Source: Amoebidium appalachense (lineage: Eukaryota; Protista; Ichthyosporea). Taken from it: 64,000 nt of DNA. This document shows positions 2,297 through 64,000 of the stretch, piece after piece (the stretch's first letter is position 1; every line of letters begins with the position of its first letter). The translations under genes and the position numbers were made by a program. The DNA is taken from positions 14,742,418 to 14,806,417 of the forward strand of contig CAVNZM010000001.1 of the NCBI GenBank assembly GCA_963693365.1. The letters are read 5' to 3'. The notes beneath the pieces were generated by a model, which ran no database searches, was not told the DNA's origin, and was given only the letters and a program-made list of their open reading frames with translations.

Positions 2297-2840
2297 TTTC
2301 GTTATAATGGACGTATACACAAACCAACGCACATTCGTTACAGCCATTATATTGCATAACTGCATACATACGAAAGCCCCTTTTACCCAGAGAACGCACA
2401 TGCACATCCTGCCACCCACACAATTCACATCTTCGTTAGTGTCCCATTACAACCTGCACATCCCACACTACTCTTCCGGCAACCAATATCCCTCTGGGTC
2501 ATCGCTCTCTCTCTCCCTAGGCCCCATCTAAACACACACACATACACACACACACACACACACACCACCCTCCTTCCTTCTCTCTCACCACCTCTCGTCC
2601 CCACACCTGAAACACACACACACACAACCCCCTCCCCCCCCCGGTTCTCCCTAACCCACCAACACCCTCCCCCCTCCCCCCTAACCCCTCCTAATGCCCC
2701 CCCCACCCCCAGGAAAAAAAGGAAACACACACACACACCTCCAAGCACACGCTCACAAGACAGCACATTCACCCATCCCCAGTAATACCCTCATCCGGCC
2801 CCCTCAGGCCAATCCCCACCCCGATTACTTTTCCTCACGA

Positions 2841-3652
2841 TCAACGCTCATCATCCAACGGGTAGAAAGGCTTCGAGTCAGGAGAATTCGGCTTGATTCC
2901 AGCCATGAACGCAGGGGGGGTCTTAACGATAGTCACAGGAACCATAGTGTGTTGCATAACATAGTCCCCCACGCTCCCCAGAACCAATTTCGCCAACGTC
3001 CCCCTGTTGCGGCTTCCAACGATAAGCTGGTCCGGCTTGAACCCGTTGCAGAATTCGCACACGGCCTCCCCGGGGTCTCCTTTAAGCAAGATGGCTTTGA
3101 CTTTTGCGCCCTTAAGGTCCGTGTTACCGCAGTAGTTTTCAGCCAGTTTCTTGCACAGGGGGGAGTCTTGCGAGAGAGGGCCGCTCGGGTGGAACACTGG
3201 ATATATGTGTTTGTGTGGGTGTTTTTTTTTTTGTTGGGGGGGGGGGAGAGGGAGGGGAGGGTGGGGGGGGGGGGGGGGGGGGGGGGGGAGGGGGGGGGGC
3301 GGGGGGGACGGTGGGTGGGTGGGTGGGCGTGAGTGAATGTGAGTGTGAGGTTATGTGCTCGGGTAAGTGGGTGGGTGGGTGTGGATGAGCATGCATGGGA
3401 GTGGGTGTGTGTGAATGCATTATATGCATGTGTTTGTTGAGTGGAGGGGAGAGCGCCGGGGGGGGGGGGAAGGGGGGGGGGGGGGGGGGGGGGGAGGGGG
3501 GAGGGGGGAGGGGGGGAGGGGGGGGGGGGGGGAGGGGGGGGGAGAGACAGGAAGATTTACGTGTGGGTGGAGGGCTTGGACTGTGTGGGTGGGGAGATGA
3601 GAAATCGGGGGCGGCAAGGTAGATGCACCCCAATTTGTGCTATTCAAGGGGG

Positions 3653-3691
<39 letters not shown>

Positions 3692-3701
3692 TGGTGGTGG
3701 T

Positions 3702-3737
<36 letters not shown>

Positions 3738-4085
3738 ATATTGGTAGGGAAGGAAGAAGAAGGAGGGTGGGGTGCGAGGTGGACGGTTTGAAAATGGTTT
3801 GTGTGTGTTTAACCGAGTAGAGAAACGAGGGAAGGAGGAGGCCGACAGATGGGAGGGAAGAAGGCGGTGATGGTGGTGGTGTGCGTGTGTGTGTGTGTGT
3901 GCAGGGGGGGGGGGGGGAGCTTCAATAATGCCCATTATCATGTGGTACGGCGGAGGGAGGGGCCCCGGGGGGGGGGGGGGGAGGGGGGGGGGAGGCATGA
4001 GAGACTATCAAAAACCACTGAAATACTCATTCAGGGAGGGCAAGTTGATGGGAGGAAAGAGAAGGACCGGGGGGAGAGGGTTGCG

Positions 4086-4132
<47 letters not shown>

Positions 4133-4999
4133 GTCAAAACATACCATTCCTGAAATCGACACCCTCCTCGCACACGTGAACAAGAATCAGCTCGTCATCC
4201 TTCTGCAGCAGAGTGCGCACAGTCCACTGTGGGAAGAATTTGGGTAGCGGTGAGGAGCATCAACCAATGAAGCTTTATGACAAATGTCGGTATTCAGCCG
4301 CGTGGTAGAATCGGGGGGCCTTTTTCTCAGCCAATCAAACAAAGAAAAGCAAAGTTAATCATCACTCCAGCAATTAGAGTGTGACGTCATAAGTTGCAAG
4401 ACATTTGAATACTGTCACCAAAAGGTCCTAATGACGAAACAACTATATAAGATATTTAATGCCTATGTCAGTATTTGCGTGTTTGACATGAATATGCATA
4501 TGTGGCTCGTGCAAGCCGTGATTGATCCAGCCATTATGATTTGATGTGATTAAGATTGTGCGCTTCAAATTTTTTTTTTGGTTTTCAGTTCTTGTCTAGG
4601 GTACTGCCCAGAAACGGACTGTGTGGGAACGAAGACGAGTGTGAATGTTGTAATGGGGAGAGAGGGGGGGAATTTAGCTAGAGCATACCGCATAAATCAC
4701 AAAAATGGACATTCAGTTGACATACAAACACACACAAACGTCACTGGGCAAACACACAAAACCTAAAAAAGTGAGGCAGACATCCGAAGGCAAGGAGGAG
4801 GGGAGGGGGGGGGGGGGGGGGGGGGGGGGGTGGGTGGGGTGGGTTGGGGAGGGGGGGAGGTGGGAAGGGAAATAAATATTCGGGCAGTTCTAGGAGGAAG
4901 TCAAATAATTTGGGCCTTAAAATCAGCGGGGTGGAAATAAGGAAGGGGGACATCAGAAAATGGCGGCCTAGAGGGTAGAGTGGTGGTGGTGGTGGTGGT

Positions 5000-5033
<34 letters not shown>

Positions 5034-5167
5034 AAAGGGTTTTTGGCTTGTACATTTAGAGCCTACTCAAGTGCCATCCATCATGCAAGGGAACAGAGTG
5101 AGCAGAAAAGTCCGGGGCAAGCCCGGTGGGTGTGGGGAAGATGGGGCCCCCGATGGGCGGTTTTTTT

Positions 5168-5208
<41 letters not shown>

Positions 5209-6010
5209 AATGCAACGTGATGCCACTGCAACACACGCACCGTGGTATACACCTGCCTGGCTATTTCTTATCCATTCCTATCTAAACCACGTACAACCAC
5301 TTGCTCCATCCAACAGGCAAACATGCATAAAAGAGTATTTCTTTTCAGCTCCACGCAAACGAATGGATTACATGACACACACACAACGTGTGCCTACATG
5401 TACTTACACGTGTACACACAGAAGCACGTTTATGCAATGAACATCCAAGCAGCTCATCCAAGGCAAACTCACCTGCAATCGGGCCTACATGAACGTGCAA
5501 TCGCAAGTTGCACATGCAAAAATTCTCACCCCCAACTACAAGCAGACTCTTGATGTATCATATGTTGAATGCAAGCCACACGAGATATAAAACCGTCAAA
5601 ACAGCAGACAGGTGAGATTGGAGACACAAGCATGCACGCACACAAGGATGCACACACGCACACACCTACACACACACGCGCGGAGTCACACACACACACA
5701 CACACACACAAGATCCCCAACCCAACACACGCACGCCCACACGCACACAAAAGCATTTTTCAGCAGCAAGTAGGCACCAAGCTTGAGAGAGAAACTTAAG
5801 AGGGGAAACTGAAGATTGTAGCTGGAGTGAACAGGTGGTGATTACAGTGGTGGTGGTTGGGGAGCAGGGGGGGCTGGGGGGGAGGGTAAGGACCTGGAAG
5901 GCGTAGCGGCTGTATGGTGAATTGTCGACAGCGAGCACAAAGCGCCGTGCCCCGGTAGGAAAGAAGTCTCCATCACGGCTGGACGCGTCGCTCGGGCTGT
6001 CCTCCGCCAT
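2841..6010 (-). CDS. Universal stress protein (UspA domain), 3 exons: 5894-6010, 4145-4226, 2841-3196
   Basis: Phase-consistent GT-AG joins give MAEDSP..RRFVLAVDNSPYSRYAFQ|WTVRTLLQKDDELILVHV..|..KGDPGEAVCEFCNGFKPDQLIVGSRNRGTLAKLVLGSVGDYVMQHTMVPVTIVK. Typical USP motifs: xAVDxSxxS, LVHV, GDP, IVGSR-x9-GSV, PVxIV. Confidence 0.93.
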
Positions 6011-6969
6011 TTTCCTCCCTAGTTGAAAACTAGATGTGGTCGGGAAAGGAAAGATCTGATCAAAGGGCCAACAAAGAATAGAAACTACACCAAAATGCCT
6101 CGGTTCCAAATGCTAACCAGCTAAAGAGATGGAACGTCAACAGTAAAAATTGCTCGGTTTCTAACTTCAGCAAAGGGCATGTACACGCCTTTTATGGCGT
6201 CGAATGCGAGTCGTGAACTGAAACTGCGCTCACCAACACGTGAAAAAAACGCCGATGGGAAAAACGAAGAGAAGGAAAAAGCAGGGTGCTACCAGGGTGA
6301 CACATTTCTTACACCTAGTTGGGTTGTGTTGTGGTTTAACCCCTGGTGTTCGTTTGCCCAAACCAGAGCTCAGAAACAGGGATGGTTGTGCTCCGGTGTG
6401 ACCTAAAAACAAAAAAAATGAATTCTGCTATAATTTTCATTGCGCGCCAACAGAAAAGAAAAAGAGAACGTTTTCCTAACGAGCTTCCCACCCACTGAAG
6501 TTCGAAGCACAAGCACCGTGAGTGGCTCACTGAAGAAATTTACAGCCCTGCAGAAAGAGGTGCACCAATCATTGCTCAAGCTCTTATCGCCCGCGATCTA
6601 TCGCGGAGCACAGCTGGATATGTAACTGGAGAGCTCGAGAGGCAGCTGGAATCCTGAACTTGATCTCCCGCCTTGTGTCTGAGAGGCTCCTTGTGGACAG
6701 TCCAGGCCAAGCTCGAGCTCGAGTGAGTGGTTATGCAGTTGTAGGCTCTCCTTCGGCCGCGGAGTCCCCAAGATTTCTTTCCCTCGTTCTTCCTCCTGCC
6801 CCATTTCTTCCTCGTTCCCAATCTCCCATTCTTTCCCCCTGCTCTCCTTATCTCTCCCCCTCTCCCTCTCTTCCGTTAGTTCCTCTTTCCCATCCCCGAA
6901 AACCAAAACTCACGAACACGCACACAGACGCACACATGCTTGCGCACCACACACACGCGCGCAACCTCA

Positions 6970-7492
<523 letters not shown>

Positions 7493-8301
7493 CGCAGGCT
7501 CTGTGCGCGCGCGCGAGTGTGCGCACGCTCATACACACTCTCTCCCTCGGGATATTCCTTTCTCACACTCTCGGTATTTTTGTTTATTGCTTAATGTGTC
7601 CGAGGCACCATCTTCAGTCCCTTTACCGAAAACAACCGAGGCTCGGTGAAGCCATGACTATGAAGAAACTTTCTCGCTCACGTTACCCCGGTGAGGGAGA
7701 CGGTGTCCCTGGAAGTACCAGTGCTCAAATATTCAACCAATCAGCAGTGACAATGTTAAGCTAAATTAGGAGCTGTTTCAGAGGGATGTAAATATTTTGA
7801 CATGTCATCAGCTGGGGACCCGTGGGGCCGTTGGCCTCAGGCCAACTTCGCTGGGTTTGACTGGTTTGAATTAGAGTTTTGAGTCAATCAAGTTTGAAAA
7901 AAATGTTGTTTATTGAACGCCATTTTGATGTGCCCTTTATTCATCATTCCCAACGTCGCAAAGGAATGACTTGGACGTTCCTGAAGCTTCTACGACCTTC
8001 TTCCACCGAAATTCTCAAAGGTCGGCGATACGTTTTAGTTTTAAAACATCCGTATATCTGCTTTAAACCTCAAATCTATATTGTAAAACGTTTTTTAAAC
8101 TGCAACAAAGCGTAATATCATGCTTCCTACTATCTGCTTCTCTATTCCGGTGAGCCACCCCCTCTCCTACATAAAAACCGCGACTTCGCAGTTTTTTTGA
8201 CACCACAGCGTTTTACAAAGAAGGTATCTTTGGCGAGAACCTGCTTTTTAATCTCACCAAAATCATCCTTAGCGTCATTTTTTCCGTGAGAGCCTGTAAC
8301 G

Positions 8302-9555
8302 ATGAAGCCCGAGGAACACAGCAAGTCACACAAGGATGACCGCCACAGCCATACCGGAGTGAGTGGCGAGCCTAAAAAAGGTGAGCTCCCACTTCCCTTC
8401 CTTGCCCATCCCCCACCCTTTGCCCCAGGGATTTCGGTTTCTCTTTTTTCCCCTTCCTTCTCCCTACACAGTTTCCTTCCTCCCCTCCCTCTTCCCCCAC
8501 AGCCCCCCTTCTTCCTTTACTTTCTCTTTTAATGGCCCCCTGCTACCTATACAACCCCCCCCCCCCCCCCCCCCCCCCCGCCCCAGCCCCTTCACTTTCC
8601 TTTCTAATGACACCCCCCGGCCTCCTTCCCAAGGACCGCTCCCCAGGACGACGTCCTTCTAACCGATACTATGCTGTTTGTTTTCTGTCCTCAACATTTT
8701 ATTATTGCAACTGTGTGCTGAATGGCAGCTGTTCTGTTCAATATGTTAGTGTTACGGTGCTCTTCGGTTACTTCCTTCTTTGTGCCCCCCCACCTCCCCC
8801 CCTCCCCCCCCCCCCCTTCCCCCCCAACCCCACGGCCCTTAGGGCCCCGTTCTCCGCACGTGCTCCCCATACCTCTGTTCTTGTCTCAGCCTCATTATCA
8901 CCTCCACGGTTAGCAAATATTCCCTGCTTTCTCATCTCCGGCACTGCACAGAATGGGGGCACACTTCACTTCCCCCAACCCCCCCCCCCTCCCCTTCTCC
9001 CGGCCCCACCCCATCCCTCCACCTCATCCCTCCCCCCATTCCCTTCCCTTGTACTGCCTTCATGGGAATTGTTCATTTCCCCCCTTTCCTTTCCTTGTCC
9101 CACTGAACTTGTATACCAGTCGGCCGTTTAGTCTGCAGCCTCCCCCCCCCCCCCCCCCCCCCCCCCCCCGCCCTCCATCTGTCCTCACCTTCAGTCTCCC
9201 TATCCCCACCCTCCCCCTCTCTGCCCCTAACCCCCACCGGTCTTTTTCCTTTGCACTCTCTAGTTATTTGTGTTTTCCTTTTGTTCCTTTCCCTTCGACC
9301 ACCCTTCAGATCACCTTCACAAACCTCTTTCTCTCACTTGCACTCTCTCTCGCCCGCTCCCTCCCTCCCCCCTCTTTCCCCCCCCCCCCCCCCCCCCCCC
9401 CCCCCTCTCTCCCTGGTTTCCCGGTTTTGAACGAATAACTGACACTCCTCTCAGGCGGTGCAGGTGGCCATTACACGTGGGGTGCACCTGGTTCTGAGGT
9501 CGACGCCCCCACCGGCGTGGACGATCCCAAGGACCCCAACTACGAGGAGAAATAG
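8302..9555 (+). CDS. 59-aa microprotein with PDCD4-N/SERBP1/Stm1/Stf2-like ribosome-binding motif, 2 exons: 8302-8380, 9455-9555
   Basis: Donor AAG|gtgagc, branch-like ctgac and ctctcag acceptor, phase 1/1. Product MKPEEHSKSHKDDRHSHTGVSGEPKKGGAGGHYTWGAPGSEVDAPTGVDDPKDPNYEEK*. Matches the PDCD4 pattern DRRSRSG..G.PKKGGAGGKGVWG.PG..(D)..DPNY across the splice junction. Confidence 0.85.
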
Positions 9556-9938
9556 ACCCCAGCCATGTGAATGTTTGCACCCCAGCCAATATGCTGAATT
9601 GTGGAGGTGGAATGCCCGGATCCTTATTTGATATGCCCAAAGGAGAATGTGGTTTATCAGGAAGCTGGGGGGCGTAATTTAGTGGGCTAGGGCATAGGAT
9701 GACAACCAAAAGAGATGGTTGAAAAGCGGGACGAAAATCAAAATGAAAGCGAAATCAAAATGAAAGCGAACTAGTTGAAAGAAAATTTTGGCTGTACGCT
9801 CAAATATGTGAAAAATGGCTGTTAAAAAAATGTTTGTAAAGCATTTTTGAAATCATATATGACCCCTTTTGGTGGTTGTAGCATTTTAATAATATTGGTG
9901 AATGTGAATGTAAGCAACGGTACCGGTTCCACGATGCC

Positions 9939-10010
<72 letters not shown>

Positions 10011-11058
10011 AGCTGCTGTGTTCCTTCTCTCCTCCCCCCCCCTCCCTTTCCGTCCCCTCCCCCCCCCCTCCCCCCATCCCTACCCCTCCACAAAAAAAAA
10101 GAGAAAGGAAAAAACAAAACAAGGCACACACTCATGCGCGTTCACACGCAGGCACTTCTTGGTGTTAAAAGTAGTTACTCCCCCTTTAGACTTGTCATGT
10201 CTGTGTCTTGGTTTGGGTTTTGAGGTTCAGGTGAATGGATAGATACTGGGATTCAGTTGCCCCTCTCTCTCTCTCTCTCTGCGCGCCGGGGGGAGGGGGG
10301 GGGGGGGGAGATAAGTTGGTGTATGCTGCTTATTCCTCCTTTTTTTTACTCCGTTTGATGCTTGCCAAGATACCATCAGTCTCTGTATATCTTTGTTCAT
10401 CCCAGTGGTGTAGTCAACCCCCCCTCCCCCCCCCCCCCCCCCCCCCCCCCCCCACCCGGTGCCGTTGCGCCGTCGCTGCCGCGCACGCACACACACACAC
10501 ACACACACACAAACTCACTCAATCGGGGGTTTGCGCTGTTTATCGAGACACAGAGCACAAACGTGCCACCACCAACCACCACCACCACGGTTCATCATGG
10601 ATAATTTCCCTGGCCCCACCCACTCCCCTCCCCTTTCCCCTTCTTCACGGCCACTCGATGTTTCTCATGCAACTCAACCCGCTTGCGCACCGAGCTTCCC
10701 AACAGGCAAATACCCTTCCACCTCCGCTCCATATTCCCCCTTTCGTGCTGTGCTTGCATCTGATAACCAGCCCACGTGTAGTGAGCACATCTTGCAGCCA
10801 TAGTGTGTCGAATTGAAGTATCTCACACGTTGGGGCCCGTACGGTAGTACCTCAAAGCAATACTCTGACAAGCTTGACCTAAGCCGTGTGTGGCCATGGC
10901 CGGAACGAATTTGGTATGAATTCCGTCCCACAATCATACAGCTCAAAATCATTGGCTGCATCATTGTTGAAGGTGAGCAGAAACAGTTGGGCAGCCAACC
11001 TACGGCCGATTATGGGCATCATGCCAGATGCACTGCAATCTTTCGTAATATTTATATG

Positions 11059-12514
11059 AAGACCGGGAGTGCAGGTCAGACACAGCACCCGTGTTGTCGC
11101 ATAAAATACGGACATGGTGGGTGGACCAGGAGGGGGCCCAGAGGGCCACGGCGGCTGCGATGGCCAGGAGTTCGATGACGGAAGAACCGAGTTTACCCTC
11201 ATGAGCATAGAGGGCTTGGGTGGAGGGGGACCAGGGCATGAAGAACCATTGGTCGAGCCAGTGGCCTCCTAGACCCACCGATCCGGCAGCATCGGTGGCC
11301 AGGGTGGTGTATGTGGGGGGTGTGATGAGGTGCACCCCATTCCATGATGTGAGGAACTGGTGCCATTCGGCTATGTCGGCCCGGGCGGCAGCAGTCAGTC
11401 GTATGTGGTGGTGGCCGGCAAGGTGTGGGTGGGTCCGGAGAGGGGCCCATAGGCGCTGGGAGAAGGCCCTCCCGGGGGGAACCAGCTGGGCACACCAGGT
11501 GAGTTTGCCGAGGAGGGACTGGAGGTCCCGAATGGTGATGGTGGGCTTTGGGTGGGAAGTGAGGTCGAGTAGGTCCGAGAGCTTGGAAGCCGGGATTCGT
11601 GCCTCCATGGCGATGGAGTCGAATTCGATACCGATGAAGATGACACGGGTAGCCGGGCCCTGCATCTTGTCTTCGGAGATGGCAATGTGCAGCTCTCGGC
11701 AGAGTTGCAGGAAGGTGGATAGGTGACGTTGGCACTGCTCTTGTGTGGGGGCGACTATAATCCAGTCGTCTACGTAGTGGCGGATGAGGGTAATACCGTG
11801 CTGGTGTGCCAGCCACTGTAGGGTGGCCGCGATCCGTTCCCAGATGGCTGGGCTAGATTTCAGGAAGAAGGGCAGTCTGGTTTCAACGTAAAAATGCCCC
11901 TGCCATTTGAATGCCATTAAGTGATGGTCTTCTGGTCGCATGGGCATGTGCCGGAAGGCAGCCTGCACATCTGCCACGGCCATGTAGCAGCCGGGGCCTG
12001 CGTCGAGAATGAGCTGGGTGACATCCCGGGCGCGAATGTACTGAAGTTCGTCGGGGTAGGTGATGCTGTCATTGACACTGCTACCCCGGGGCCAGGAGAG
12101 GTGGTGGATTCGACGGTACTTGGGGGGGTTCCCTTTCTTGGTAACGGCGCCGATGGGGGAGGAACGGTGGACCGGAAATTCGTCAAAGAATTGGGCCGGG
12201 GAGAGGGGGCCGCGCAGGTGGCCGAGGGCGACTTCTTTGGCAATATCCGCCGTGATAGCGGCAGCTGCCTCCGGGGTGGTGGGTAGGTTGGGGCCCACCC
12301 GAGAGGTGGAGGGGCCGCGATAGCCGATGTCGACACCGAATTCGACATCGTGGAGGAGTTGTGCGGCGAATAATTGGTCTGGGTAGGAGGCCAGCAGTTC
12401 CCGGAGGCGGGAGGTGTCAATGTGGTGCTGGGGCAGCGGGCGGGCCTCCGGGTCTGAGCCTCGGGGGAAGGGGGTGGTTAGCAAGGGTGGGGCACCCTCG
12501 GTGAGATCCCGGCA

Positions 12515-12556
<42 letters not shown>

Positions 12557-12700
12557 CAGGGCCCCCGGGGGGTTAGAGTAGGGCAGCTGGGCCCGAGTGA
12601 GGGTTGGCAGGGAGAGCAGCGGGGCCCTGTGCAGGGGAATGTGCCCGAGCACGCGGGGGTGTGGGCGGACACAGAGGTAGAAGAAGGGGGGGAGGGAGTG
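11059..12700 (-). pseudogene. DIRS-type reverse transcriptase / RNase H ORF2, truncated
   Basis: RT motifs KYRRIHHLSWP, DVQAAFRH, LPFFLKSSP (G of the usual LPFG replaced) and YVDD. RNase H motifs ATDAAG, IELLAIAAAV and ILCDN. The ORF breaks at 11059; the last ~20 codons of the track ORF come from the duplicated host sequence. Confidence 0.85.
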
Positions 12701-12944
12701 CTAGGTGAGTGTAAGGGGGGGAGGCTCGTGGGATGGGGGGGGGGAGTAAAATTATGTGCAGTGGCCAGAATAAACGTCTTTGTGTAGGGACATTTATTCT
12801 TGACGCGCGCGGGCGCCGTAGTTGGCCTGCGAAATTTTGTACTCAGCCCTATTGGCCCGTTCTCCCGAGCTCCGTTTCCCTGTACTCGTGTGTCCTAGCT
12901 CCTAACCCCTATGTTCTAGCTGTGTGTGTGGGTGTGCGCGTAGA

Positions 12945-14114
12945 CTAGGCATTGTGCTTGCAGTCTTTGCGGGGGTGTGTGCCAGAGCAGAGCGGGCACA
13001 CGTGGGAGAAGGGGCGGGGCTGCTTAGCGCAGGACCGACCGTTGATGTGGAAATTCCTGCAGTGCGTCGCGGGTAGATCCACGGGTCGGGCCGGTTTTGC
13101 CGGGCCGGGTTGCGGGCCAGGGCGGTTAGGGGTTTGACCCCCGCCGGGCTTGTGGGGCGGCTTAAAGCCGTCAAGACCACAGCCGGGCTTGGGGTACATG
13201 GGGCAGGCCGCGCTGGGGTGGTCGGGGAAGCCACAGCGCTGACATGCGTCCGGGATGAGCAGAGTGGGTGGCAGGAGGAGATCCTGGTGGAGTTGGGCGA
13301 GCAGGTTGGGACACTCGATCGGAGCCCGACCCTGCTGGTGGGCAACGGTTCGGGCGTATACGTCATAGTTGTGGATCTGGGCCCACGGGTATCGGGTGCT
13401 GAGGCGAGTGATGTGCTGAGTCCAAAGTACGTCTTTGTCCGTGGGGAGGCCGAGGTGGTGCTTGGCGGCCATGTAATGGGTCCAAGCTTGGATCCAAATG
13501 ACGAGTGAACGCAGGGGAACGGGTTTGTCTTGGCGAAAAGTCTCGATGCTGCCGTCGTCGGCCATGCGCAGATGCTGACCTTTCTTGGATGGGGCCAGGA
13601 GGGCGGCGGGGGTGAACTTATACAGGTCGACGAAACGATTGGCGCGCAAATCTGCCAGCACATCCGCGGGGGGAAGCGGGAGTGTGCCCGGCTGAATGTC
13701 GCCAGTGTTCTCACCTGTGATGGGGGGCGCGGGCAGGGCAGGTAGGTCTAGGTCAGGGCTGAGATGCAGCCCCGGGGAAACCTCCCCGGGTGCGGAGGGC
13801 GCGGCGGGGGGTGCGGGAGGGTCGCGGTTGGTGAGAGCAGCCAGGACGCCAGCCATCTGGGTGCTGATGGCGGTGAGGGCGGCAAGGACGGCGTCTTGAG
13901 AAGTCATCTGCGGGGACGGCGGGGCCTGAGGGGGGACTTCAGGAGTGGAGGGGAGAGTAGCCGGCGGGTCCGGGTCCGTGGTGGTATGGGCCGCTGGAGG
14001 CGCGTCAGTGTCCGCGGGAGCGTTGGTCAGCCTGTGGCGGAGGTCGCTGCGGGTCAGGCGCTTAGGTGCCGCGGCAGGGGCGGGGGCTGAGGCCTGGCGC
14101 TTTTTCGGCGGCAT
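12945..14114 (-). CDS. DIRS-type gag-like ORF1, 389 aa
   Basis: ATG-to-stop ORF with Pro/Ala-rich N-terminus, W..AW..Y and 'YPWAQIHNYDVYAR' core, CCHC knuckle CQRCGFPDHPSAAC, and C-terminal CRNF..C..F.H.C..C..H...C zinc region. Confidence 0.85.
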   Translation of the reverse strand: MPPKKRQASAPAPAAAPKRLTRSDLRHRLTNAPADTDAPPAAHTTTDPDPPATLPSTPEVPPQAPPSPQMTSQDAVLAALTAISTQMAGVLAALTNRDPPAPPAAPSAPGEVSPGLHLSPDLDLPALPAPPITGENTGDIQPGTLPLPPADVLADLRANRFVDLYKFTPAALLAPSKKGQHLRMADDGSIETFRQDKPVPLRSLVIWIQAWTHYMAAKHHLGLPTDKDVLWTQHITRLSTRYPWAQIHNYDVYARTVAHQQGRAPIECPNLLAQLHQDLLLPPTLLIPDACQRCGFPDHPSAACPMYPKPGCGLDGFKPPHKPGGGQTPNRPGPQPGPAKPARPVDLPATHCRNFHINGRSCAKQPRPFSHVCPLCSGTHPRKDCKHNA

Positions 14115-14231
14115 GCTGACCGGCGTAGGGAAAGATAGGGAGAATGAAAAGAAAATATAGCTGTAAAGCTGTAGGTGCTAAACACAGAAGATGTGTTTGT
14201 TGCTTGCTGATCTGCTAAAAAACTGTCGTGC

Positions 14232-19884: not shown

Positions 19885-20539
19885 GCCAACACCCTACTCC
19901 CACTCCTATTACCCTCACCAAACCAACGTCTAAAACCTACTGATATATCCCACAATTACAAGTCACAAATAAAGTTTCGGCATACCTGTCGGTCAAACGC
20001 AGGTACATTTGGGTGACCAACTGTCAGCATGCGCACATGCAATTGTTGCAGAGTAATAACAATTGCAGATCTTCTGTGAAGGACGGGTCCAGAAATTATG
20101 GTCGCCCCAAAACAATATGCTAAATCCTTACTAAACAGTCGGTTGTTTGCTCGCAACGAGTGGGAAGAAGTGCTGCGAGCTTGAGGTTTACCCTAATTAC
20201 CCTAATTGCTCCTGGTGGTTTCAATATGTGTATTCTTTGTGGCATGCTGGTGTGATGAGGTGCCGGCACTGGGCCAAGGCCAACAGCATTTGTACACAAC
20301 ATGTGAAGGCGCATAGCCAAGATTACAGCGATAATATCGAAAACATAGGTTTACATGCAGGGGTTTACATGAGTATGTGCACGTGGCCTACCAGAGATTG
20401 CCCTCTTCCGTGCTCTTCTTTGAAGAATCCAGTTTCGATTGAATAAGTGCTGTAAGCGCCTCATCTAGAAAGTAAGCCTGGTAGCTCCTGATTATGGTCC
20501 CAAATCAATGAAAGAACAATATTGAATCATCCCCCCCAC

Positions 20540-20576
<37 letters not shown>

Positions 20577-20981
20577 CACACACACACCCACACCCACCCA
20601 GACACTAGGTAATACCCCTCCTGTCGGCCGTGTAAAACTACTCAAGACGCTTACGCATGCCCCCCTCCATTCCCCCAACCCCGCTCTCCCCAGTGATCAC
20701 CACCACCATGATCCCCCCCCCTCCCCCCCCCTCTCCCCCGCCTCTCTTTCCAGGTACCTTCCAACTCTTGACCAGCACTCCGTGCAGAGGTAGTACCACG
20801 TAGTACATAGTCACGTGACTAAGGAACCTAATCAAAGCTGTTGCTCACATAGTCCACCTTGGCCTCTGCAATACCGGCACAAACATAAAGGGATTTTTGC
20901 AACAGCATTTCTTAAGGCTTCCTCCCCTCCCCCCTCCCCCCTCCCCCTTCCCCCTCCTCCTGCCCTCTCCCATCTCCCCCA

Positions 20982-21025
<44 letters not shown>

Positions 21026-21930
21026 ACGACCCAATGGGCCACCCTACTCCCACTACTGGTGTCCCCGCCCTTCAATGTCGAAGATTCACAGAATCGTTCC
21101 ACAATCATCAACTATCTCCAATAGATGCGACTGTCAGTGTAAAGCAGGTGCATTTGGGTGGCCAACTCTCAGCACATGCAGTTGTTTGCAACACAGCTTG
21201 GTCAAGTTTGGTCTGTATTTGGCTGGCAGGCTGAAATCAGACAACTGGTCACCCCAAAAATATGCCAACACCCTACTCCCACTCCTATTACCCTCACCAA
21301 ACCAACGTCTAAAACCTACTGATATATCCCACAATTACAAGTCACAAATAAAGTCTCGGCATACCTGTCGGTCAAACGCAGGTACATTTGGGTGACCAAC
21401 TGTCAGCATGCGCACATGCAATTGTTGCAGAGTAATAACAATTGCAGATCTTCTGTGAAGGACGGGTCCAGAAATTATGGTCGCCCCAAAACAATATGCT
21501 AAATCCTTACTAAACAGTCGGTTGTTTGCTCGCAACGAGTGGGAAGAAGTGCTGCGAGCTTGAGGTTTACCCTAATTACCCTAATTGCTCCTGGTGGTTT
21601 CAATATGTGTATTCTTTGTGGCATGCTGGTGTGATGAGGTGCCGGCACTGGGCCAAGGCCAACAGCATTTGTACACAACATGTGAAGGCGCATAGCCAAG
21701 ATTACAGCGATAATATCGAAAACATAGGTTTACATGCAGGGGTTTACATGAGTATGTGCACGTGGCCTACCAGAGATTGCCCTCTTCCGTGCTCTTCTTT
21801 GAAGAATCCAGTTTCGATTGAATAAGTGCTGTAAGCGCCTCATATAGAAAGTAAGCCTGGTAGCTCCTGATTATGGTCCCAAATCAATGAAAGAACAAAA
21901 TTGAATCATCCCCCCCCCACTCCCCCACCC

Positions 21931-21961
<31 letters not shown>

Positions 21962-22376
21962 ACCCCCCCCCCACACACACACACCCACACCCACCCAGAC
22001 ACTAGGTAATACCCCTCCTGTCGGCCGTGTAAAACTACTCAAGACGCTTACGCATGCCCCCCTCCATTCCCCCAACCCCGCTCTCCCCAGTGATCACCAC
22101 CACCATGATCCCCCCCTCCCCCCCCCTCTCCCCCGCCTCTCTTTCCAGGTACCTTCCAACTCTTGACCAGCACTCCGTGCAGAGGTAGTACCACGTAGTA
22201 CATAGTCACGTGACTAAGGAACCTAATCAAAGCTGTTGCTCACATAGTCCACCTTGGCCTCTGCAATACCGGCACAAACATAAAGGGATTTTTGCAACAG
22301 CATTTCTTAAGGCTTCCTCCCCTCCCCCCTCCCCCCTCCCCCTTCCCCCTCCTCCTGCCCTCTCCCATCTCCCCCA

Positions 22377-22408
<32 letters not shown>

Positions 22409-22648
22409 ACGACCCAATGGGCCACCCTACTCCCACTACTGGTGTCCCCGCCCTTCAATGTCGAAGATTCACAGAATCGTTCCACAATCATCAACTATCT
22501 CCAATAGATGCGACTGTCAGTGTAAAGCAGGTGCATTTGGGTGGCCAACTCTCAGCACATGCAGTTGTTTGCAACACAGCTTGGTCAAGTTTGGTCTGTA
22601 TTTGGCTGGCAGGCTGAAATCAGACAACTGGTCACCCCAAAAATATGC
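19885..22648. repeat. Recent near-perfect tandem duplication, units 19885-21265 and 21264-22648
   Basis: Duplicate ORFs at offset 1379. The copies differ by a few SNPs and poly-C lengths, with a 2-bp 'gc' overlap at the junction. Confidence 0.93.
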
Positions 22649-25390: not shown

Positions 25391-52816
<27,426 letters not shown>

Positions 52817-56081: not shown

Positions 56082-63986
<7,905 letters not shown>

Positions 63987-64000
63987 GTGAGTGTGTGATT

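Follow-up and report, generated by a model that had tools for sequence, protein, structure and literature searches.

A transcribed two-exon gene of Amoebidium appalachense with a predicted 59-residue product resembling the ribosome-binding region of PDCD4

The ribosome-binding region of PDCD4 and its counterpart in Amoebidium

Human PDCD4 contacts the small ribosomal subunit through residues 100-145, and Motif 1 as well as Motif 2 of this region is required for 40S binding. In structures its position is incompatible with those of mRNA, initiator tRNA and eIF1A, and binding is lost in the human mutants R102A/R103A/R110A and W124A/Y131A (PMC11217289). According to the available part of a second study, W124 lies in a pocket of uS3, K114/K115 on helix 18, and R102 and R110 contact the decoding bases, while the substitutions K114A/K115A and V123A/W124A abolish binding (PMC11310195). 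The same partial text describes the fragment 1-156, which alone binds the 40S subunit with a Ki of 21 nM and, when unlabelled, competes full-length PDCD4 off it. The fragment binds 43S weakly with no gain from eIF4A, whereas eIF4A stabilises the full-length protein on 43S. In the experiments given there, concentrations of the fragment up to 8 uM left lysate translation uninhibited (PMC11310195). Under starvation PDCD4 co-migrates with 80S, and the authors point to its likeness to Habp4/SERBP1/Stm1 (PMC11310195, available part). Loss of Habp4 is described, in the accessible portion of another report, as lowering monosomes and leaving polysomes unchanged (10.1101/2021.11.03.467131). Finally, a review states, in its accessible sections, that it has yet to be proven that even PDCD4 generates vacant 80S (PMC12785861).

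The locus described here lies in a stretch of 64,000 nucleotides of A. appalachense DNA, the whole of which is termed the window. Its predicted product of 59 residues corresponds to the human PDCD4 ribosome-binding region (about 100-146; PDB 8XXL-8XXN, 9BKD, 9BLN), with which it is collinear, the glycine run being kept, and it ends at the equivalent of residue ~146. Human PDCD4 has 100 N-terminal residues, an eIF3G-pairing strand (148-159) and MA3 domains, whereas the window protein lacks all three. PDCD4 and the plant MRF proteins carry tandem eIF4A-binding MA3 domains, while the window protein ends three residues past its DPNY box.

In the alignment, R14, H15 and S21 occupy the places of human R102, R103 and R110, K25/K26 those of K114/K115, W35-G36 those of W124-G125, V42 that of Y131, and the DPNY box (residues 53-56) that of 140-143. 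Motif 2 of PDCD4 and plant MRF, comprising the lysine pair and WG, is retained, and the DPNY box that closes the region is present. From Motif 1, one of the three arginines (R14) is retained, with His and Ser at the others. The description of the protein as a PDCD4-type ribosome motif in the first-pass annotation is supported by the equivalents of K114/K115, W124, R102 and DPNY and weakened by His and Ser at the places of R103 and R110. Both replacements occur in natural relatives: His at the R103 place is the family norm (78 of the 110 short relatives scored), and Ser at the R110 place is rarer (8/110 short and 21/113 long forms). The Trp is kept in 109 of the 110 short relatives, and the lysine pair and WG, which are known 40S contacts, are the residues best kept across distant eukaryotes. 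The window protein contains a single Arg and is both very hydrophilic (GRAVY -1.63) and net acidic (pI 5.6).

For scoring, 116 of 120 long homologues contributed their motif region to a profile. Full independence cannot be claimed for it, because the long set had been retrieved with an alignment containing both exons and 2 of its 120 members had no MA3 match. The spliced product scored 73.5 bits, compared with 40.7 for exon 2 alone, 22.8 for exon 1 alone and 22.6 for the unspliced read-through. The best of 500 shuffles reached 8.4 bits against the same profile, so the PDCD4-type motif in the spliced product is not due to chance. A Pfam scan of each exon separately returned no family. A family profile, consisting of 17 short relatives and both exons, was searched against the PDB and matched human PDCD4 98-150 with an E value of 2e-16, against 1e-3 for the best SERBP1 match, which bears out the original reading of the sequence as PDCD4-like and not SERBP1-like. 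With the SERBP1 chain of 6MTE, modelled over 55 residues, the same profile gave E 0.005, and in a PDB search with exon 2 alone PDCD4 was top-ranked, though only at E 0.15.

SERBP1, HABP4 and Stm1 are hibernation factors of the Pfam family PF04774, which hold eEF2 on vacant 80S ribosomes. SERBP1 resembles the window protein in the DRH(S) of Motif 1, the lysine-glycine run and WG, and its modelled chain in 6MTE is close to it in length. However, SERBP1 chains are RGG-rich and extend to 402-408 residues, and the aligned SERBP1 stretch lacks the DPNY box that the window protein has. Judged by its sequence, the window protein is neither PDCD4, having no MA3 domain, nor, by size, an orthologue of SERBP1/HABP4. 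It is predicted to work like the channel-binding segment shared by PDCD4, SERBP1 and HABP4.

Gene structure, transcript and genomic neighbourhood

The microprotein locus is an intact, spliced and transcribed two-exon gene, the protein product of which is predicted (Table 1). The exons contribute 79 and 101 coding bases, which together make 59 codons. The junction 8380/9455 was found in contigs of two of the three sequencing runs (X1 and X2), where 1074 bases with GT..AG ends are skipped; the third run (X3) gave no contig at the locus. A 556-nt contig of X1 aligns to 8269-8378 and 9453-9898, has 0 mismatches and continues past the stop codon with no further splicing. Since an in-frame TGA lies inside this contig, the frame cannot begin further upstream on the X1 transcript, and because the contig is also unbroken through the stop, the 59-codon frame is complete. 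The in-phase splicing of two exons into such a frame, as originally proposed, is thereby confirmed. The window protein was absent among the matches listed in the two protein searches described below, which is consistent with the earlier remark that annotation would easily miss it.

Table 1. Features of the microprotein locus and of the remainder of the window
Feature	Position	Strand	Remarks
TATA-like box	8168..8175	+	pattern match; upstream of the transcribed part; putative role
5' untranslated part	8269..8301	+	within X1 contig; in-frame TGA at 8287-8289; RNA start may differ
Coding exon 1	8302..8380	+	ATG at 8302; residues 1-26 plus one base; Motif 1 (DRH 13-15), K25/K26
Intron	8381..9454	+	1074 nt, phase 1, GT..AG; donor GT at 8381; AG ends at 9454
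Branch-point-like CTGAC	9439-9443	+	inside the 1074-nt intron
Coding exon 2	9455..9555	+	glycine run; W35 (codon 9478-9480); DPNY, residues 53-56 (9532-9543); TAG 9553-9555
3' untranslated region	9556..9898	+	343 nt; X1 contig, no break; poly(A) site not readable from contigs
Universal stress protein (USP) gene (PF00582)	2740-6234	-	head-to-head neighbour of the microprotein gene; splicing seen in X1 and X2
Retroelement	11003-14177	-	gag-like frame 12948-14177; reverse-transcriptase frame 11003-12700 (PF00078)
Tandem duplication	19885-21265 and 21264-22648		~1.4 kb, 97% identity
Tripeptidyl-peptidase II gene exons (PF12580, PF21223)	about 31600-40200, probably wider	-	long repeat-rich introns
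Exons with weak EF-hand matches	59554-64000	+	perhaps a mitochondrial carrier that binds calcium (guessed from the sequence)

The transcript support comes from one sample of one study, in runs that are marked 'RNA?' as a guess and none of which is on record as RNA; they behave as mRNA of this organism, because in X1 and X2 the upstream USP gene, too, is found in spliced form. Contigs give neither transcript ends nor expression level, and the depth of the microprotein contig, about 15-20 times that of its USP neighbour in both runs, cannot rank the genes. No AATAAA was found downstream of the microprotein gene, and no Rfam family matched in 7500-10900. A low-depth X2 contig (depth 3.3) at 8020-8200, upstream of the main transcript, may represent a longer 5' end or DNA.

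When the window, divided into 2020 frame segments, was scanned with an MA3 profile, no signal was obtained (best E 4.3). In the corresponding control, spiked pieces of held-out proteins were recovered in 40 of 58 cases at a length of 25 residues, in 40 of 42 at 35 residues and in all 28 at 50 residues. In addition, a tblastn search of the window with the 120 long homologues matched exon 2 and nothing else, and no second copy of the microprotein gene was detected within the window. The contiguous X1 contig and the absence of MA3 from the window agree with the claim that the protein stops at the TAG and is not spliced into downstream MA3 exons. Among the 19 frames scanned, the genes flanking the microprotein gene lie on the opposite strand, namely the USP gene upstream and, downstream, a reverse-transcriptase element, presumably DIRS-like, followed by tripeptidyl-peptidase II. 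Some contigs cover intronic parts of the USP gene, which suggests retained introns or other isoforms.

These results bear on the possibility that the locus is a leftover from the duplication of a PDCD4 gene, transcribed yet either not translated or in decay, or else part of a longer gene that has been called wrongly. Mis-calling appears easy, given the many single-exon fragments among the short matches of the searches below, and the support for the gene is at transcript level with a predicted protein. However, one contig runs across the ATG, the junction, the stop and the whole 343 nt of untranslated region, MA3 is missing from a window in which the control recovered nearly all 35-residue pieces, the flanking genes are on the other strand, and complete short relatives exist in many lineages. 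We thus consider a remnant or a mis-called fragment highly improbable.

Short relatives in other eukaryotes

Two protein searches returned 515 short matches among 955 candidates and 743 short matches among 5293, and the rows examined were the best 120 of the 515 and the best 120 of the 743. As many as 55 of the 121 short matches examined start at the glycine run behind intron-like residues, and all 55 are compatible with an AG acceptor; as stand-alone proteins they were rejected, being single-exon fragments of longer PDCD4 genes. These protein fragments suggest that many PDCD4 genes share the intron site of the window gene, a result that one such fragment in the query favours. From the 120 rows of the second listing, 5 truncated PDCD4 proteins and 3 DUF952 fusions were removed, and the 112 that remain include likely fragments (e.g. 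P0013, P0025, P0301) and are not a clean family count. The top match of one search, a protein of 4282 residues with 13 repeats (P0001), was rejected as a repeat match.

Short homologues without MA3, the search for which had been suggested at the outset, were found widely. Stand-alone relatives of 58-160 residues are present in Amoebozoa, Apusozoa, an ichthyosporean relative, red algae and streptophytes. They include proteins of Chromosphaera (66 residues, Nk52_evm38s270), Thecamonas (77, AMSG_09297), Flamella (64), Vannella (58) and Echinostelium (79). Red algae contribute those of Rhodella and Erythrolobus (73 each), Rhodosorus (82), Porphyra, Galdieria and Gracilaria, and streptophytes those of Chlorokybus, Spirogloea, Nothoceros, Marchantia (MARPO_0162s0011), Sphagnum, four ferns and Ginkgo; a named entry also exists for Adiantum (GOP47_0003880). 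In these uncharacterised proteins, those of Galdieria, Rhodella, Flamella and Vannella among them, a short leader is followed by the full motif and by a stop soon after DPNY, with no MA3 domain, and at 59 residues the window protein is one of the shortest among short database proteins. On the strength of this shared layout, it belongs with the short, uncharacterised, stand-alone PDCD4-type proteins. The notion of a minimal stand-alone factor is thus upheld insofar as the short gene is complete, but the protein is not unique, being a member of a wide short-protein family. In Chromosphaera the 66-residue form coexists with a separate 417-residue MA3 protein encoded on a different scaffold, the two being 57% identical over the shared stretch.

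In metagenomes, 12 of 29 loci stop within 47 codons of the match without MA3 in the locus, 15 contain MA3, and the other 2 run on into other long frames. One of the loci (L011:1137-1410) encodes a 64-residue stand-alone homologue with an 81-nt GT..AG phase-1 intron exactly at the site of the window gene's intron. Two loci (L021:91-252 and L025:304-498) have the motif at the beginning, or close to it, of long frames of 354 and 412 residues, which do not match MA3 and are further fusion partners. Five plant-like stand-alone members of 145-162 residues (L012, L013, L018, L023, L024) carry additional conserved segments at the N and C terminus; an identity of L018 with At1g16850 was not supported, as both published primers gave 0 matches. 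Three proteins (P0320, P0321, P0328) carry the ribosome-binding motif fused to PF06108 (DUF952), and because of these fusions the PDCD4-type motif can be regarded as a mobile module beyond PDCD4.

In a tree based on 51 columns, short and long forms are interleaved with 6 changes between them, and the branch of the window protein is long; in an AU test, grouping of the short forms into one clade was not rejected (p 0.14), which leaves room for one origin of the short forms as well as for several. Three rows are absent from the first tree and one from the second, where the motif pattern failed. None of 213 pattern matches in viral contigs was confirmed, and in prokaryote genomes 1 of 228 pattern matches, comprising 17 residues inside an unrelated frame, was rejected.

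Yeast Stf2 and Tma10 are small, hydrophilic proteins of the PF04774 type with a related motif. To our knowledge, they have no DPNY box. They could constitute the fungal branch of the short PDCD4-type group, which would reduce the novelty of the latter. When 19 aligned rows were compared with PF04774, 12 matched at E values up to 1 (best 8e-8), and a fern relative (P0002) scored narrowly above the curated cut-off (22.4 vs 21.8 bits). Some of the short relatives are named 'Hyaluronan/mRNA-binding protein domain-containing' in UniRef and others 'hypothetical', and these existing labels weaken the original interpretation. In the Atlas, a 57-residue, mostly fungal HABP4-type cluster, in which Zoopagomycota prevail among the 11 members with a phylum, adjoins the 66-residue Chromosphaera relative with a score of 0.90, which is to be taken as a lead only; an Atlas search with exon 2 gave matches that were all below 0.9.

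This adjacency, together with the marked hydrophilicity of the window protein, would agree with a small stress protein acting mainly off the ribosome, in dehydration or oxidative protection or in general RNA binding, like Stf2, which the available part of one paper describes as a hydrophilin of the cytoplasm on which survival of dehydration depends (PMC3306391). Nevertheless, the best-kept residues are the 40S contacts, i.e. the lysine pair and WG, which a generic hydrophilin would not need, and a function of this kind seems rather unlikely.

Possible role on the ribosome

We consider it somewhat probable, by analogy with human PDCD4, that the window protein is a stand-alone PDCD4 ribosome-binding region acting as a reversible plug, which would park idle 40S subunits or vacant 80S ribosomes. 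If the human structures are a guide, W35 would occupy the uS3 pocket, K25/K26 would rest on helix 18 of the 18S rRNA and R14 would reach the decoding centre, and these contacts would hold the mRNA channel closed. Because the eIF3G strand and the MA3 domains are missing, trapping of eIF4A should be impossible and displacement of the microprotein upon formation of the 43S complex would be expected, so that its effect may lie in the protection or storage of ribosomes and less in a block of initiation. We infer such a plug from three observations on the described proteins, namely the co-migration of PDCD4 with 80S under starvation, the effect of Habp4 on monosomes and the lack of inhibition by the N-terminal part of PDCD4. 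An AlphaFold model of the 66-residue Chromosphaera relative has no fold (mean pLDDT 60, pTM 0.19), which is what one would expect of a peptide becoming ordered on the ribosome, and the window product is likely unfolded too.

Several features speak against such a plug. The equivalents of R103, R110 and Y131 are His, Ser and Val, while the human triple and double mutants that include these places lose binding. The R103 change would be mitigated by His being the family norm, whereas Ser at the R110 place stays rarer. The net acidic character of the predicted product is a further argument against it, as are the transcript support from a single sample and study and the long branch of the window protein, and the formation of vacant 80S is described as unproven even for PDCD4 in the accessible sections of the review (PMC12785861).

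Occupation of the channel could also make the protein a repressor in its own right, sterically blocking 43S/48S assembly, as the clashes of the PDCD4 region with mRNA, initiator tRNA and eIF1A would allow (PMC11217289). However, the human N-terminal part does not inhibit, and the window protein is a shorter version of it, in which two of the Motif-1 arginines are missing as well; a stand-alone repressor is therefore quite improbable. Of the two functions initially offered, translational repression is thus doubtful, and hibernation is the half that the comparison with PDCD4 would favour. A different possibility is that of a natural competitor of full-length PDCD4, which would bind the same 40S site without the eIF4A trap and relieve or tune PDCD4 repression. 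The coexistence of short and long forms in Chromosphaera is in line with it, as is the ability of the human fragment to displace full-length PDCD4 from 40S while being non-inhibitory (PMC11310195, available part). On the other hand, eIF4A stabilises full-length PDCD4, and not its N-terminal part, on 43S, and competition may fail where it is needed. We regard this role as unlikely and return to the reversible plug as the preferred reading.

The PDCD4 ribosome-binding region was defined in 2024, and it may either park ribosomes or help to block initiation. A natural gene for this region alone, kept across distant eukaryotes, separates both functions, which opens the question to experiment in tractable hosts, among them Marchantia, Ceratopteris and Galdieria. 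A search of the open-access literature, with subscription journals and bioRxiv supplements outside its scope, yielded no study of stand-alone PDCD4-type short proteins, and the available parts of PMC3850090 and PMC11847360 contain nothing on short forms. In the Toxoplasma ribosome, an unassigned channel density has been tentatively ascribed to a SERBP1-like protein in a 2026 preprint (PMC13419753, available part), and the short PDCD4-type proteins are candidates for unassigned mRNA-channel densities in ribosome maps of protists and plants.

The window locus contributes a member of very small size, an intron site that is shared, the absence of a neighbouring PDCD4 and an argument against the repressor function. 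Its novelty is tempered, as the family is wide and partly annotated already; what the sequences would offer is a putative minimal form of a recently defined module, which is directly testable. Tentatively, the short proteins of 58-160 residues may constitute an ancient and so far overlooked eukaryotic class of minimal mRNA-channel plugs, maintained alongside full PDCD4 in lineages that range from amoebae and red algae to land plants and unicellular animal relatives. They may then be the smallest such hibernation factors, tuners of PDCD4, and possibly the module that was fused to MA3 domains to build PDCD4.
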